DNA from: a virus
DNA: 64,000 nt
Direction: 5' to 3' (one strand)
IMG/VR virus record: IMGVR_UViG_3300040816_000831
The notes under the pieces were generated by a model, which saw only the letters and a program-made list of their open reading frames with translations, was not told the origin of the DNA and ran no database searches. Position numbers and translations under genes: made by a program. How positions within the stretch are numbered: the stretch's first letter is position 1; every line of letters begins with the position of its first letter. This document shows positions 940 to 63,866 of the stretch, piece after piece.

Positions 940-1187
940 AGAGGTAGTTTATTACCTCTCTTTGATTTAATTAAATGTAAGCCTGAAGCTTCTTCTTCAA
1001 TCTTTTGCTTTAAAGAATCTGTTAAGAGCTTCTTAAGATTTTTATAATCCATACCTCTTTGTTCTACGACATAAGATGCTGCATCGATATATGACATACT
1101 ATTATTTGCTACAAGATGCTCTACTGCTGCAGAGAATCTCTTCTTTGTCATAATCTTTTGCTCTATTGGATTATCTTTATCCGACAA
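936..1187 (-). CDS. 33: Late transcription coactivator gp33 (start uncertain: TTG 1187 or ATG 1151)
   Basis: F...VE......SYIDA...LL..SLK.KIEEEA..L.L pattern; synteny. Confidence 0.8.
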   Translation of the reverse strand: MSDKDNPIEQKIMTKKRFSAAVEHLVANNSMSYIDAASYVVEQRGMDYKNLKKLLTDSLKQKIEEEASGLHLIKSKRGNKLPL

Positions 1188-1698
1188 ACTCTTCACCTTC
1201 ATTCCAAGCACAACCTGTAAGACCACCTGCTTGTAAAGCTTTCAATGTTCTTAATACTTCTTGTGCGTTTCTTCCTGTATCTAAAGCGTTAATAGATACA
1301 TGTTGTATAACTCTATTCTTATCAAAGATAAATGTTGCTCTGTATGGAACACCTTCATCTTCATTAACAATACCTAGTTGATGTGATAGTCCTAATCCAC
1401 AGTCAGCTGCTAATGTATGATTAATAGTACCAATTAAATTATTATCTTGTTTCCAAGCTAATTTACAGAACTCATTATCTCCACTTATTCCAATAACATT
1501 AGCATCATCGACTAAACAGTCAAACCCAGCTATTTCTGTTGGACATATAAAGGTAAAGTCCTTAGGATAGAAATAAACTACACTCCACTGTTTTTTCTGT
1601 GGCATATAACTTTCGTTTACTTCAACTCTCACAAATTCATTTTTTTCGTTAATTCCTTGCAGTGAGAATGCAGGAAACTTTTCTCCGACTGATAGCAT
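1177..1698 (-). CDS. ahpC: Peroxiredoxin (AhpC family)
   Basis: YFYPKDFTFICPTE peroxidatic motif, RATFI, GRN. Confidence 0.92.
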   Translation of the reverse strand: MLSVGEKFPAFSLQGINEKNEFVRVEVNESYMPQKKQWSVVYFYPKDFTFICPTEIAGFDCLVDDANVIGISGDNEFCKLAWKQDNNLIGTINHTLAADCGLGLSHQLGIVNEDEGVPYRATFIFDKNRVIQHVSINALDTGRNAQEVLRTLKALQAGGLTGCAWNEGEEFVG

Positions 1699-1707
1699 AT
1701 TATCCTC

Positions 1708-2829
1708 CTAAAATACTCTCATTAATATACAGTCAGCATTAACTCTGCCTGTTGGTTTATCTATTTTTGTTGTTAATGTATCCCAAATCTTTTCAATTTG
1801 TTTTTCTGTTTTATTTAAAATCATTGGTAGTATTTCATCTGGCTTTCTTAAAGTAGCTTGTCTAGACTCTTTAGTAAAGTTTTTTACTGAAGTGCCTGAT
1901 ACTTCGAAGCCACTTACTGAGTCTGTAAAGTATTCAATAAGTTTCTTGTTCTTTCTATTATAGACATACAGCTTGTGTTTGCCAGGTATCATTACAGGAT
2001 TAATCGAGGTTAACTTAACGTCGTTATCTTCTGTACAATACTTTAACTTACTAACCTGTTGGTCTGAAGCTTTAACTTTCTTAGCTCTTGGTAGTTTAGT
2101 AGCCTTAAACGAATCTTTTAATCTATCTAAATCAGCAAATATTTCTCTAAACTGCTTAAGTATTTTATTTTTTTCGCCTTTAGTCCAGTGAGAATAAGCT
2201 TCGACACATTGGTCGCAAGTCTTTTCATATGCCTCATTGATGTTATTATATTCAGTATCTAATAATTCTCTGAATATCTTGATGGCATTACCTTTTAAGT
2301 TATGACCTTTAAATCTGTTATAAGCACTAAACTTTCTATTAAAGTCTCCTTCTAACCAACCTTCAACTATTTCTAAATCAAAATCAGCGTATATAGTATC
2401 CATCACTTTTCTGCGAGTTCTTTCAGCAGGACTGATAACAACTACTACAGCTTTTTTAGCTTCTTCGACTTTCTTTTCTTTTAAGCCGATTTTATATTGA
2501 ACATTAATAAAATCTTTAATCTTATCTAATTGTTCATCTGAATAGACCCATCCTCTATAATGTAGTTTAATCAGTTTATTAACTGACATAAATTTATAGT
2601 CTTTAAGTCTTTTAAGTACTGCTACTTTCTTTTTATCGTATCCACAATAGTCCATTGCAAACTGATAAGTTGTAGGCATGTAATCCTTAGTCTTATAAAA
2701 ATAGTTATACCATGAAGCTCCTCTTGTCCACTCTCTATCGTTGAACTCTGATTCCTTAGTATAAATTGGTTCTGGTCCAAGATACTTATCATCTAGACTT
2801 GGTCCTCTTTTTCTTTTATTTGCTGCCAT
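1708..2829 (-). CDS. Conserved T4-like phage protein, unknown function
   Basis: 373 aa ORF with own promoter and AAGGAG SD; C-terminal TLRKP...GRVN motif. Confidence 0.7.
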   Translation of the reverse strand: MAANKRKRGPSLDDKYLGPEPIYTKESEFNDREWTRGASWYNYFYKTKDYMPTTYQFAMDYCGYDKKKVAVLKRLKDYKFMSVNKLIKLHYRGWVYSDEQLDKIKDFINVQYKIGLKEKKVEEAKKAVVVVISPAERTRRKVMDTIYADFDLEIVEGWLEGDFNRKFSAYNRFKGHNLKGNAIKIFRELLDTEYNNINEAYEKTCDQCVEAYSHWTKGEKNKILKQFREIFADLDRLKDSFKATKLPRAKKVKASDQQVSKLKYCTEDNDVKLTSINPVMIPGKHKLYVYNRKNKKLIEYFTDSVSGFEVSGTSVKNFTKESRQATLRKPDEILPMILNKTEKQIEKIWDTLTTKIDKPTGRVNADCILMRVF

Positions 2830-2855
2830 ATTTCTCCTTAATTGTTTATATGTAT

Positions 2856-2884
2856 ATTATAACACATTTTAAGTCGTTTGTAAA
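2856..2884 (-). promoter_or_regulatory. Sigma70-like phage promoter
   Basis: TTTACA-N17-TATAAT. Confidence 0.75.
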
Positions 2885-2904
2885 CGATTTTTGTGAATAA
2901 AGGT

Positions 2905-2952
2905 GGCCGAGCCTCTGCGGGTGATAAGGAGTCGCATTGTTGAGACTCAGCC
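2905..2952 (-). ncRNA. Structured RNA element with anti-Shine-Dalgarno loop (candidate 3'UTR-derived sRNA)
   Basis: GGCUGAGUCUC/GAGGCUCGGCC 11-bp stem with two G-U pairs, inner UGCG/CGCA stem, loop ACUCCUUAUCAC; GC-rich island in intergenic DNA. Confidence 0.55.
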
Positions 2953-2961
2953 GTTGACATA

Positions 2962-3084
2962 TTAATCTTTCTCCCAAGGTAATGGGATTTGTTTTCCTTT
3001 TCTTTGTTCTTCAGCGACATGGCTTGACATGTATGCAAACACCATTGCTCCTATTGTAATTAATATAGTAAAAAATGTATTCAT
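2962..3084 (-). CDS. Small membrane protein (40 aa), not in ORF track
   Basis: MNTFFTILITIGAMVFAYMSSHVAEEQRKGKQIPLPWEKD; TAATG coupling to upstream gene, GAGGAG SD. Confidence 0.65.
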   Translation of the reverse strand: MNTFFTILITIGAMVFAYMSSHVAEEQRKGKQIPLPWEKD

Positions 3085-3440
3085 TAGTTTCTCCTCATAT
3101 TAGCAATATCAGTTGCTTCTTCTTGAGAGATAACTGGTACAGCATTTGATTTATGCATAGTGGCAATACCTTTTACTAAGGTGCCAGTATACTTCATTGT
3201 TTCTTTTTTACTACAATCGCTAGCGATTTCATGGTAATTACCATTCTTCATATATTCTTCCATTAAGGAATTATATTGTACAGCTTGTCTTTCTCGTATC
3301 TTATTTAATTGAGATTCTCTTAAAGCTGCTGATTGAAAAGCCACTGGCTTCTTTTTAACTCTATTAGCTGCGTGGTTTTTTCTCTTCCTTCCACAAGGTG
3401 AATACCTTAGTGAACCCATATAGAAGCTCGTAACAGCCAT
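3084..3440 (-). CDS. Conserved phage hypothetical protein
   Basis: C-terminal YTGTLVKGIATMHKSNAVP motif typical of marine T4-like phages. Confidence 0.7.
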   Translation of the reverse strand: MAVTSFYMGSLRYSPCGRKRKNHAANRVKKKPVAFQSAALRESQLNKIRERQAVQYNSLMEEYMKNGNYHEIASDCSKKETMKYTGTLVKGIATMHKSNAVPVISQEEATDIANMRRN

Positions 3441-5286: not shown

Positions 5287-5321
5287 ATTCTTAACTCCTT
5301 ATCAATTTTGAATATATGTAT

Positions 5322-5396
5322 ATTATAACATACTTTTGAGCAAATGTAAAGGTTTTTTTTCACTTTTTGGTGAAATAATTGTGAGAAAGTGTTGTT
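5322..5396 (-). promoter_or_regulatory. Early promoter with conserved ~45 bp upstream element
   Basis: TTTACA-N17-TATAAT plus upstream block shared with 41576-41648 and 63793-63866. Confidence 0.8.
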
Positions 5397-6556: not shown

Positions 6557-6589
6557 TTTAACTCCTTATCTTTTAAACTGTATAGGTAT

Positions 6590-6648
6590 ATTATACCCTA
6601 GTTGGGAGCAAATGTAAAGGACTTTTGGGAAAATAATGAAAATAATTA
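6590..6648 (-). promoter_or_regulatory. Early promoter with degenerate upstream element
   Basis: TTTACA-N17-TATAAT; upstream GAAAATAATT block on + strand. Confidence 0.7.
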
Positions 6649-6673
6649 CACAACAATCACTATGTCAGCAGTT

Positions 6674-41540: not shown

Positions 41541-41575
41541 ATTTAACTCCTTATCTTATTTTTAAATATAGATAT

Positions 41576-41648
41576 ATTATAACATACTTTAAAGCAAATG
41601 TAAACGATTATTTTCACTTTTTTTGAAAATAATTGTGAGAAAGTGTTG
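41576..41648 (-). promoter_or_regulatory. Early promoter with conserved upstream element
   Basis: TTTACA-N17-TATAAT; AAATAATTGTGAGAAAGTGTTG identical to copy near 5373. Confidence 0.8.
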
Positions 41649-41653
41649 ATGTG

Positions 41654-43291: not shown

Positions 43292-43607
43292 TTCCTATTC
43301 CTATTGTTGCTTGATTAGTTTCTTTAGCGTATTCTAAAGAATCTGTTATTATATATTGTAGTACTGAACCTAAGTAATTTTTAAACGATTCGTCTTTCTC
43401 AAGTTCATCTACACTAAAATCTGCTGGGTCTTGTACTGTAAAGTTAAAGCTTAATGTTGCTATATCTAAGTTAGGGTCTTCTTTGACTCCAACTTGTCCA
43501 TATACAACTATAACATTCTTCCAAGTACCAGTTTTAAGTTTTACTCCTTGAAACGCACTATTGTCGTTTTCTACAATTGAGTAGTCTTTTTCGCTTATGT
43601 TGTACAT
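43245..43607 (-). CDS. Hypothetical protein at the gp40 position
   Basis: Between uvsX and 41. Confidence 0.6.
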   Translation of the reverse strand: MYNISEKDYSIVENDNSAFQGVKLKTGTWKNVIVVYGQVGVKEDPNLDIATLSFNFTVQDPADFSVDELEKDESFKNYLGSVLQYIITDSLEYAKETNQATIGIGNDESVTNTHTESSST

Positions 43608-44659
43608 TATTCTTCAGTATCAATATCAAGGTCAATATCAATCATTGGTCTATGACCGACTGAATAATATGTTTTTACAAACTCTTTAAAGTTAGTATTT
43701 TCCAAGATTGGTTCCCAGAACTTTTTCTTAAGAGTATCTTTTTCTCTTACTTTTGGTTCTAGTATTTCTCCAGTTTCCATATCAACTGCGGCATACCAAC
43801 CAACATTTGGTTTAGTTACGTATCCACCAGCCATTGCAACATCGAGCAATCCACTATACTGTTCTATACCACCTTCCCACGTTACTGAGATTGGTACCTT
43901 TGATTTTTCTTTTACAAATCTAGATTTTTCTACATTGATTACAAAATGATACCCTTGTATTTCTGTACCTTTTTTATCTTGACGTCTTCCAATAATCCAT
44001 ATATTGTCTGATGAGTAATAGATACCTGTACCACCTGAAACAACTGCTTTAGGAAACAATCCAATTTCTTGATAAGTATGATTAACAGCAAGTAAAGGGA
44101 TATTCTTCATGGTTAGATAAGGAGTAATCATTCTGAATAATCCCTTTAATGCTTTAGCTCTTGACATGTCAGCGACTGACTTTTCATTGAGAGCATCTTC
44201 CAACTCTTTCTTAGAGGCTAAGTTTCCAATTGAATCAATAACAACAACAACTTTATCTCCTCTTTCGATATTTTCGAGTTGACCTACTAAATCGAACTTA
44301 AGTTGTTCGACATTTTGTACTGGAGTATGTAATACTTTTTCAGTATCAATACCAAATGATTCGAAATAAGATTGAGGTGACCCAAACTCTGAATCATAAA
44401 ATAACATTACTGCATCTTCATGCTGCTTTAAATAAGCTGCTCCCATAAGTAGAGCAAATGAAGTTTTGAAATGCTTTGAAGGACCGGCAAGAACTGTAAG
44501 TCCTGATGTAAGTCCTCCGTCAATATCACCTGATAATGCAACATTTACCATTGGCACCTCAGTGACAGTTATATCTTTTTCAGCAAATAAAACTGAATCA
44601 GATAGAATAGAAGTATCTTTGATTTTACTATTCTTTTTTAATTTATCCATTATAGACAT
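43607..44659 (-). CDS. uvsX: RecA-like recombinase UvsX
   Basis: AGPSKHFKT, FYDSEFG, IDSIGNLAS, SGGTG. Confidence 0.96.
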   Translation of the reverse strand: MSIMDKLKKNSKIKDTSILSDSVLFAEKDITVTEVPMVNVALSGDIDGGLTSGLTVLAGPSKHFKTSFALLMGAAYLKQHEDAVMLFYDSEFGSPQSYFESFGIDTEKVLHTPVQNVEQLKFDLVGQLENIERGDKVVVVIDSIGNLASKKELEDALNEKSVADMSRAKALKGLFRMITPYLTMKNIPLLAVNHTYQEIGLFPKAVVSGGTGIYYSSDNIWIIGRRQDKKGTEIQGYHFVINVEKSRFVKEKSKVPISVTWEGGIEQYSGLLDVAMAGGYVTKPNVGWYAAVDMETGEILEPKVREKDTLKKKFWEPILENTNFKEFVKTYYSVGHRPMIDIDLDIDTEE

Positions 44660-44660
44660 A

Positions 44661-44927
44661 TTATCTTCTCCTGGCTTTTGACGGCCTATTAAATGCATCT
44701 AGCATTCTTTGTTGTTTACGACTTCTAGAAACTGCTTCAGCTTTTTTTCTTTTCTTTTTAGCTGTAGGTTTTTCATAGAATTCTCTTTTGCGTACCTCTT
44801 GTACAATACCTGCGTTTTCACAGGCTTTTTTAAATCTTCTTAGACCAACATCAAAAGGCATTTCTTTTGATGGTCTTTTGTCTCTAGGATTTTTATTCTT
44901 CCTTGGACGTAAATCTATACTTGGCAT
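44661..44927 (-). CDS. rpsU: Ribosomal protein bS21
   Basis: [31 protein letters not shown]. Confidence 0.92.
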
Positions 44928-58120: not shown

Positions 58121-58149
58121 ATTATACCATAGTTTAGGTTAAATGTAAA
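58121..58149 (-). promoter_or_regulatory. Sigma70-like phage promoter
   Basis: TTTACA-N17-TATAAT, 6 nt before gp43 ATG. Confidence 0.75.
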
Positions 58150-58418: not shown

Positions 58419-58874
58419 TTACCCTTTCAAGTATTCTTTCTTCTTTGATGCCCCAGCAGACCCTAATTCGATCTTTCTAGGACGCTTCTCTTCTGGAAGT
58501 TCTACTCTGGCATACACCACTAGTATTCCATCCTTCAAATCAGCACCGTCTATTACAACAAATTCTGAGAGTCGAAATGATTTCTCAAATTTGCGGGACG
58601 ATATACCTTTATATGCGTATTCACGCTCAGCTGGCTCCACCTCTCCTTTGACTTTCAATATGCCATCTTTAAGTTGGATATCAATATCCTTTTCCTTAAA
58701 TCCAGCAATTGCAAGCTCGATGAGAAATTTCTCATCATCGATTTTCACAACGTTATGTGGTGGATAGTTATCAGTTCCAGACCTAGCACTTTGATGAATC
58801 CTTTCTAAGTCTTCAAACAATGTGTCAAATCCGACAAAAAGTGAACGCGGTACGTTCAAAGTATTTCTTACCAT
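58419..58874 (-). CDS. hsp20: Small heat shock protein Hsp20 (IbpA-like)
   Basis: NYPPHN, ELAIAGF, KGIS.R.F...F.L, A.L.DGIL, PEEKRPRKI. Confidence 0.93.
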   Translation of the reverse strand: MVRNTLNVPRSLFVGFDTLFEDLERIHQSARSGTDNYPPHNVVKIDDEKFLIELAIAGFKEKDIDIQLKDGILKVKGEVEPAEREYAYKGISSRKFEKSFRLSEFVVIDGADLKDGILVVYARVELPEEKRPRKIELGSAGASKKKEYLKG

Positions 58875-59050: not shown

Positions 59051-59485
59051 TTAATTTTTTTCTCCATTATTAGAGTTCCCTATGTTATACTTAGGGCATA
59101 GTTCCCATTGAGTTTTTTCCTTAAAAGGAATCACCTTAATTTGTCTCAATGGTGCTAAATCTTTAGAAGATTCAGGCTTCATAATAGTTACTAAACCCCA
59201 GTCGGCTAGTAATGTTGCAATTGTATTTCTACGTTGTACATCATTCTCAAGTAAACTAGATGGTTTTCCATCTAGTAAAAATAGTTCTTTAAAGTGAACT
59301 ATAAAATATCTACCTTGCTTATGTAATATATGGCAAGATTGAAAAAGCTTCTGGTCTTTCCTAGAAGCTACACCTATACGTGTTAATGTTTCACGTATCT
59401 TTAAAAAGTCGTCTGGTTCGTTTAGAGAGACTTCTAACATAGAGTTAGGAGTCCAATCTGTAATTTGTATGTTATTGTTTTCCAC
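59051..59485 (-). CDS. regA: Translational repressor RegA
   Basis: DDFLKIRETLTRIG, QSCHILHKQGRY.IVHFKELF. Confidence 0.95.
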   Translation of the reverse strand: MENNNIQITDWTPNSMLEVSLNEPDDFLKIRETLTRIGVASRKDQKLFQSCHILHKQGRYFIVHFKELFLLDGKPSSLLENDVQRRNTIATLLADWGLVTIMKPESSKDLAPLRQIKVIPFKEKTQWELCPKYNIGNSNNGEKN

Positions 59486-63759: not shown

Positions 63760-63792
63760 AATATTGTTTCCTTATCAATTTGTTATATGTAT

Positions 63793-63866
63793 ATTATACC
63801 ATAGTTCTTTGTAAATGTAAAGGTTTATTTTCACTTTTAGGTGAAATAATTAGCAGAATAGTGTTG
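63793..63866 (-). promoter_or_regulatory. Early promoter with conserved upstream element
   Basis: TTTACA-N17-TATAAT plus TTTTCAC..GTGAAATAATT..GTGTTG block. Confidence 0.78.

Follow-up and report, generated by a model that had tools for sequence, protein, structure and literature searches.

A conserved RNA hairpin on the minus strand of a viral DNA (positions 2905-2952 of a stretch of 64,000 nucleotides from IMG/VR virus record IMGVR_UViG_3300040816_000831, the whole of which is referred to as the window) exposes in its loop an anti-Shine-Dalgarno (anti-SD) sequence, complementary to the ribosome-binding sites (RBSs) of four genes that stand first behind one class of early promoters. The source of the DNA is an uncultured marine T4-like myovirus. 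Both the reality and the strong conservation of the hairpin are established by the comparison of relatives, and the complementarity of its loop to the RBSs is confirmed to be more than chance. The interpretation put forward in the original prediction is supported in part. The balance of the sequence evidence tips modestly towards the reading that the element is an anti-SD RNA located at the 3' end of early transcripts, which would repress the early leaders of that one promoter class.

In this part of the window all genes have the minus strand as their sense strand, and on that strand positions 2905-2952 fold into a GC-rich hairpin with a minimum free energy (MFE) of -22.8 kcal/mol (z -4.4), a value equalled by none of 200 dinucleotide shuffles. 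An outer stem of 11 bp (2942-2952 paired with 2905-2915, two U-G pairs included) leads via a 5-nt bulge to an inner stem of 4 bp and a 13-nt loop, ACUCCUUAUCACC (2920-2932), which displays the anti-SD sequence and of which ACUCCUU is invariant across lineages. Refolding at these coordinates reproduced the GC-rich, nested minus-strand stem with exposed loop of the original prediction. The whole window had no match in Rfam at gathering thresholds and a permissive scan of 2780-3100 returned only noise (E >1), so that the hairpin matches neither the c4 antisense RNA of P1/P7 nor any other Rfam covariance model; no tRNA or tmRNA was found in the window either. Two coding readings of the locus were rejected. 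An open reading frame (ORF) across the hairpin (2846-2977) shows the conservation pattern of a stem and not of codons, while no ORF of at least 40 aa starts from the RBS-like sequence on the plus strand at 2922-2932, where the frame, read by eye, closes within a few codons.

Relatives were gathered through the conserved 373-aa gene that lies next to the hairpin (1708-2829, minus strand; PHROG 11903, no assigned function), giving 80 loci and 40 more from IMG/VR and 80 loci from metagenomes (individual loci are designated by L numbers below). Of 122 distinct upstream regions, roughly 99 (about 80%) have a hairpin in the corresponding position; the count was finished by hand, since an automatic choice of the strongest hairpin within 330 nt upstream gives too low a number, a coding-region fold being at times the stronger one. 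CUCCUU lies in the loop of at least 55 distinct hairpins. In an alignment of the window's own group (26 distinct members), pairing of the outer helix is complete and double-sided changes occur in 10 of its 11 pairs; the covariation score of 0.516 (shuffle mean 0.268) was reached by none of 500 shuffles and drops to 0.07-0.13 when the partners are slid by 1-3 columns. Since many of the pairs are G-U and would turn into A-C on the other strand, the selected structure is the gene-sense RNA, or at least a single strand, and the earlier claim that G-U pairs fix the strand holds up in the relatives. All 13 loop letters are invariant in the window's own group. Farther away in the sample, stems bear no relation to one another in either sequence or length, but the loop still starts with (A)CUCCUU, usually followed by AUCA, and an exact 19-mer comprising loop and inner stem recurs where the neighbouring protein is only 51% identical. 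A conserved stem with an unconserved loop had been named beforehand as the pattern that would count against the prediction; the opposite is seen, with the loop fixed on unrelated stems. Variants of the loop include those of L097:3343 and L101, which hold two CUCCUU motifs (UACUCCUUUAUUUUACUCCUUG), and those of their close relatives L058 and L068, which hold a second, partial ACUC.

The hairpin is also lost in several lineages. In L182/L180 the downstream promoter has gone with it, leaving 16 nt from stop to start; in L197/198, L205 and L207/208 the promoter before the gene is kept, and in L200 neither is present. No other sense-strand CUCCUUAU hairpin was found in the 36-67 kb available from the hairpin-loss lineages. 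Such precise deletion of a cassette in some lineages would suit a plain PeSL, i.e. a terminator-promoter cassette spread by recombination, the loop of which is kept by recent descent and matches the RBSs by chance. The arrangement agrees as well: the hairpin stands immediately 5' of an early sigma-70-type promoter (TTTACA-N17-TATAAT, 2856-2884, minus strand) that serves the 373-aa gene, and together with the SD and start codon of that gene forms a PeSL-like cassette with the layout known from T4-like phages (PMC4122927). Nevertheless, the stems have diverged past recognition while ACUCCUU and mostly AUCA are retained, and PeSLs occur many times per genome with a stem consensus (PMC4122927), whereas the present element is a single copy with a fixed loop: a single such hairpin was found in the 64 kb of the window, five related contigs have one per 35-128 kb, and the stems vary freely from phage to phage. 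As a chance match also fails the 11-mer, flank-shuffle and whole-strand duplex controls described below, this explanation is considered extremely improbable.

Sites complementary to the loop lie at 5294-5304 (TGATAAGGAGT), 6561-6570 and 41546-41555 (both GATAAGGAGT) and 63769-63777 (TGATAAGGA), all on the minus strand and each forming the RBS of the first gene behind a TTTACA-N17-TATAAT promoter; the four sites named in the original prediction were all recovered. The predicted targets comprise the RBS UGAUAAGGAGU of a 169-aa gene (start 5286), which pairs over 11 nt at -15.6 kcal/mol, the RBS GAUAAGGAGU of a 99-aa gene (start 6556) and of a 73-aa gene (start 41540), at -15.0 kcal/mol each, and, as a weaker candidate, the RBS UGAUAAGGA of a CobS-like ATPase gene (start 63759), at -12.2 kcal/mol. 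As had been proposed, the match runs past the generic AAGGAG core, extending on both sides to U-GAU-AAGGAG-U. The alternative outcome, that GATAAGGAG would be equally common at other gene classes, was not observed: its three copies on the sense strand of the window are all at target RBSs. With up to one mismatch allowed, the 11-mer occurs six times against 1.65 expected (none of 100 shuffles reaches six), and a duplex scan of the loop along the whole 64-kb sense strand gives ranks 1-3 to the RBSs belonging to gene starts 5286, 41540 and 6556. Shuffling the flanks around CUCCUU in the window's loop gives p = 0.014. The target leaders are essentially unstructured (0 to -4.5 kcal/mol). CTCCTT occurs seven times on the sense strand of the window, the hairpin copy being the only one in the loop of a strong intergenic hairpin, and none of the other sense-strand ACUCCUU sites in the related contigs is a hairpin loop.

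A second sense-strand ACUCCUUAUCU is found at 44115-44125 inside uvsX (43607-44698, minus strand) with a local fold of -19 kcal/mol; three other lineages retain it at a like distance from the hairpin (39-42 kb). As a second element it was rejected, since it encodes a conserved Thr-Pro-Tyr and the stem around it is disrupted in one lineage, while another has one compensatory change; its retention is probably coding conservation.

The four RBSs share more than their sequence. The minus strand of the window holds 18 strong sigma-70-type promoters, and AATTATTT is located just 5' of the -35 element in only four of these, which are exactly the promoters of the four target RBSs (5322-5395, 6590-6660, 41576-41650 and 63793-63866 for targets 1 to 4, respectively). 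The earlier claim that the targets stand behind promoters with an extra upstream element is borne out in this stricter form, with the qualification that the element is partial in one of them: three of the four also carry TTTCAC/GTGAAA (CAC...GTGAAAA), as in the AATTATTTCACC-N5-GTGAAAA of target 1, while the promoter at 6618 has only AATTATTT. Transcripts from the promoters of targets 1 and 2 are predicted to reach the hairpin. The full element, AACACTTTCTCACAATTATTTCACC-N5-GTGAAAA, contains the inverted repeat TTTCAC/GTGAAA and abuts the -35 element at 5351-5395, 41605-41650 and 63822-63866, with the partial copy at 6619-6660 (minus strand); in related phages, TGTAACA/TGTTACA repeats occupy the same position. 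Judged from its sequence, it resembles an operator to which a DNA-binding regulator of this promoter class might bind. The possibility that these are middle promoters with a MotA box was dropped on spacing.

Seven of the 18 promoters (-35 elements at 58149, 47158, 27889, 23286, 21523, 18904 and 3852, minus strand) have the ATG of a real ORF only 6-10 nt after TATAAT, an arrangement also seen in relatives. They include the promoters of the gp43 DNA polymerase (ATG 58114) and NrdA (ATG 27850), and leaderless mRNAs are predicted for these core replication genes. This feature would give some meaning to a loop acting as a general SD sponge, or mimic of the 16S rRNA 3' end, which titrates SD-led messages of host and early phage and thereby favours leaderless phage mRNAs, all the more as the invariant part of the loop is the generic core CUCCUU. 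However, the complementarity exceeds that core on both sides and the flanks vary by lineage together with the phage's own leaders; stoichiometric titration by one copy per at least 64 kb is doubtful. A sponge is thereby rendered very improbable. The suggestion in the original prediction that the loop sequesters strong host SD sequences gained no support of its own; the match beyond the core (U-GAU-AAGGAG-U) points to specific phage targets.

Loop and leader flanks also change jointly. Among 34 distinct sets with loops of the CUCCUU-AUC type, 33 have one or more promoter-proximal leaders with GAU-AAGGA, as against none of the 14 sets with non-AUC loops; in a 62-row tree built on the neighbouring protein, the loop and leader traits each change twice, on the same two branches. 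L045/L163/L164 are the most informative individual case: the loop AUCAUCAACUCCUUUUCAUCAAC faces the leader UUGAUGAUAAAGGAGAAAAUGAUG of the promoter that carries the upstream element, in a predicted duplex of -21.8 kcal/mol (21 bp with one bulge and one internal loop) that spans the SD, its 5' flank and the start codon. The flank-shuffle p is 0.0025, and no better than -8 to -15 kcal/mol is attained when foreign loops are set against the L045 leaders. Similar behaviour is seen for L122 (GUGAUAAGGAGUU, 13 bp, -20.6 kcal/mol, flank-shuffle p 0.003), L168 (loop ...CUCCUUAUCAUUAU, -21.4 kcal/mol, p 0.002), L097 (with its two CUCCUU motifs, -18.6 kcal/mol, p 0.005) and L146 (loop ...CUCCUUAUCAAAAA, -16.1 kcal/mol, p 0.011). 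Permutation of own and foreign loops against the leader sets of ten lineages yields p 0.00025. Of eleven contrasts between sister lineages, six are negative, as expected; three are positive, of which two lie near zero, and the other two are exactly zero. Complementarity to the target initiation regions exceeds chance and is conserved, as in small RNAs (sRNAs) derived from 3' untranslated regions (3'UTRs), with the paired test borderline; co-evolution of loop and leaders is supported by these data, not proven.

The genomic setting indicates how such an RNA could arise. The last ORF of the early block (40 aa; 2962-3084, minus strand) has its stop codon 9 nt before the hairpin, on the 5' side of which extend 3.7 kb of small ORFs. 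Three promoters of the same type lie upstream on the hairpin strand (-35 elements at 6618, 5350 and 3852), none of them within 900 nt, and no other terminator-like or strong hairpin occurs on that strand between them and the element. Taken together, the stop codon, the upstream promoters and the lack of an intervening hairpin place the element where early transcripts should end; the 3'UTR position claimed earlier is supported, and, as with 3'UTR-derived sRNAs, the element sits at the 3' end and shares the terminal hairpin of an operon. The stem is followed by a moderately U-rich tail, ACCUUUAUUCAC (2893-2904, minus strand), a possible intrinsic-terminator tract. The stem is GC-rich and the tail reads ACCUUUAUU; a terminator consensus scan did not call the hairpin because of its 13-nt loop. 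Many relatives have U6-8 after the stem; elsewhere the stem abuts or overlaps the -35 element. In L132, L133, L139, L144, L146 and L122 the outer stem runs into the downstream -35 hexamer (e.g. GGGGGUUGACA paired with UGUCAACCCCC), so that RNA structure overlaps promoter DNA, and in L058, L068, L097, L101 and L102 the homologue of the 373-aa gene follows the hairpin without a promoter and without an SD (e.g. ACUUUAAUUAAGAAAAUACUAUG).

In the mechanism proposed here, the hairpin would form the 3' end of early transcripts initiated at 6618, 5350 and 3852, its GC-rich stem serving as terminator and/or as a barrier to 3' exonucleases and presenting a single-stranded loop composed of (A)CUCCUU and a lineage-specific flank. 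The RNA would accumulate and its loop would pair in the cell over 9-11 nt with the unstructured U-GAU-AAGGAG-U leaders (up to about 21 nt in one relative), masking the SD and keeping 30S subunits off, with repression as the expected outcome. It could act on its own transcripts at 5294 and 6561 (operons from 5350 and 6618, respectively) and in trans at 41546 and 63769 (operons from 41604 and 63821). Because the element would be made only once an early operon has been transcribed to its end, a delayed negative feedback is proposed.

The same position allows for control in cis, whereby the loop silences the SD of the 373-aa gene 60-90 nt downstream on read-through transcripts, while transcripts from the internal promoter lack the loop and are hence translated. 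Structure-dependent silencing of read-through transcripts is established for the T4 genes e, soc and 49. The hairpin is always directly 5' of the 373-aa gene, usually with a promoter in between, and the RBS of that gene is often AUAAGGAG or UAAGGAG (AUAAGGAGUA in L073 and L116), with 7-10 nt complementary to the loop. This linkage is, however, partly built in, since the relatives were gathered through that very gene, and the complementarity to the next RBS amounts to 8-10 nt in some lineages and to only 7 nt in the window, compared with 10-11 nt at the early leaders. Furthermore, the lineage-specific flanks fit the early leaders and not the next gene (21 bp versus 7 nt in L045), the five lineages without an SD at the downstream gene (L058, L068, L097, L101 and L102) keep the hairpin nonetheless, and both promoter types look like the same early class, leaving no evident temporal logic. 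Control in cis is accordingly regarded as unlikely.

A further explanation holds that the loop is recognised by a protein (an RNA-binding regulator, an RNase or a ribosomal protein), with the complementarity being a by-product or one factor reading both sites. An invariant loop on a variable stem is also typical of protein-recognised hairpins, the leader motif persists where the hairpin is lost, and the phage encodes RegA, while leaders like AAAAUUGAUAAGG resemble aaAAUUGUUAUGUAA, the consensus obtained for T4 RegA by systematic ligand evolution with exponential enrichment (SELEX; PMC3014915). A single-strand RNA binder would, however, read the same sequence twice and not its complement; known RegA sites are A+U-rich, unstructured and overlap the AUG (PMC3014915), unlike the loop; and the bulge and internal loop of the L045 duplex suit pairing between RNAs and not a shared protein site. 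Protein recognition is hence held to be decidedly unlikely. A double-stranded DNA site read in both orientations would have no need of a covarying stem with G-U pairs.

Several observations weigh against repression of the early leaders by a 3'-end anti-SD RNA and temper the preference for it. The hairpin-loss lineages keep (U)UGAUAAGGAA early leaders, which implies that the leader motif has a reason independent of the hairpin and that the hairpin is dispensable. The perfect association of loop and leader traits comprises only two independent switches, with which a sign test cannot reach significance, and the contrasts between sister lineages are borderline (Wilcoxon one-sided p 0.049). Within the U-rich-loop clade, flanks for the most part do no better than shuffled ones (p 0.1-0.25), a null result attributable to the pairing of U-rich loops with A-rich leaders in any order. 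The fourth target is weak, its 9 nt and -12.2 kcal/mol being tied at about rank 11 in the duplex scan. With respect to termination, at least four U within 9 nt after the stem are present in only 22 of 55 distinct relatives, a count in which stem ends are sometimes poorly defined, and no promoter separates the hairpin from the 373-aa gene in L041/42, L045, L058, L068 and L075/78; as that gene lacks its own promoter in these lineages, the hairpin is not a complete terminator there.

The T4-like nature of the phage is evident from its gene content. The window encodes the T4-type functions gp43 DNA polymerase, gp45, gp44, gp62, RegA, UvsX and gp59, in addition to a DnaB-like helicase, NrdA and the CobS-like ATPase, and the order gp45-gp44-gp62-RegA-(Hsp20)-gp43 is that of T4. 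The homologue of the translational repressor RegA lies at 59051-59485 (minus strand; PF01818, E 2.6e-44), and leaders like the one quoted above, as well as the AAAUUAUG that often stands in front of start codons, are similar to T4 RegA operators and to the SELEX consensus. An Hsp20 small heat-shock protein is encoded between RegA and gp43 (58419-58874, minus strand) and an AhpC/TSA peroxiredoxin between the 373-aa gene and gp59 (1177-1698, minus strand). Identity of the DNA polymerase is 52% with Phage C48C1 and about 47% with cyanomyoviruses. No near-identical DNA was found among GenBank phages, and Phage C48C1 (GC 43%), the closest deposited genome by polymerase, has no such hairpin in its first 50 kb and is of no use as a relative. 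The phage is possibly pelagimyophage-like, a group for which a curli-type operon is a reported hallmark (PMC7029224); SAR11 or a similar streamlined marine bacterium is noted as host as a lead only.

The T4-type phages are the textbook case of early-gene shut-off by proteins, namely RegA and RegB, to which an RNA hairpin with a similar role would add a new kind of effector. The element belongs to a very widespread uncultured group of marine myoviruses, from which more than 130 metagenomic loci were collected, and the 48-nt hairpin with its leader tags of 10-11 nt makes a simple pair that is workable in heterologous reporters without a cultured phage or host. It also suggests that terminator loops in phage genomes merit reading as possible regulators. 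Whether RNA-only feedback on early translation via a terminal hairpin that turns off its own class of leaders might constitute a general, undescribed layer of phage regulation, operating beside RegA in this abundant marine clade, is a more tentative proposition, to which slightly less than even weight is given. On that view, in conjunction with the many leaderless mRNAs of replication genes, it might shift ribosomes away from SD-led early messages and towards leaderless ones.

From its sequence and position, the element is classed as a putative base-pairing regulatory RNA from an mRNA 3' end, which belongs to a lytic T4-like phage and would have its seed in the terminal loop, and the literature searched contained no paper on an anti-SD terminal hairpin in T4-like or marine phages. 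The nearest phage counterpart is the c4 antisense RNA of P1 and P7, which is processed from the transcript of its own target and the loops of which pair over the ribosome-binding site. It shares no similarity in sequence or structure with the present hairpin, and its place is upstream of the target, within the immunity operon of a temperate phage, whereas the hairpin has a downstream position and occurs in a lytic T4-like phage. The PeSLs of T4-like phages (PMC4122927, PMC2839356) are alike in having a stem-loop followed by a TTTACW-N17-TAYWAT promoter, SD and start codon in a plastic early region, where the cassette is gained or lost as a unit, as here; they differ in being numerous per genome, with a stem consensus and no role ascribed to the loop, while the present element combines a single copy and freely varying stems with an invariant, RBS-complementary loop. 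In T4, RegA and RegB inactivate early messages at their translation initiation regions, RegB targeting GGAG in the SD (PMC3014915). Their effectors are proteins, whereas the effector proposed here is an RNA loop in a phage that also has RegA.

The closest parallels are bacterial, where anti-SD motifs in 3'UTRs block translation of their own mRNA (icaR, PMC3868564) or their own operon (OppZ and CarZ, PMC7398697). In Staphylococcus aureus, a pyrimidine-rich anti-SD motif in the 3'UTR of icaR pairs with the SD of the same mRNA, blocks initiation and creates a substrate for RNase III (PMC3868564). That mRNA is monocistronic with a long 3'UTR and the motif UCCCCUG, whereas the phage hairpin displays a CUCCUU(AUCA) loop, stands 2.4-3.7 kb from its nearer predicted targets in a polycistronic early block and has further predicted targets elsewhere in the genome. 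OppZ and CarZ of Vibrio cholerae (PMC7398697) are RNAs from the 3' end of an operon that share its terminator hairpin, as in the present case, and they pair with the ribosome-binding region of their own transcript in a negative feedback of the type proposed here. They are, however, bacterial, cut by RNase E and associated with Hfq, with a single-stranded seed 5' of the terminator, whereas in the phage the pairing sequence lies inside the loop of the terminal hairpin itself and also matches the leaders of two distant operons.

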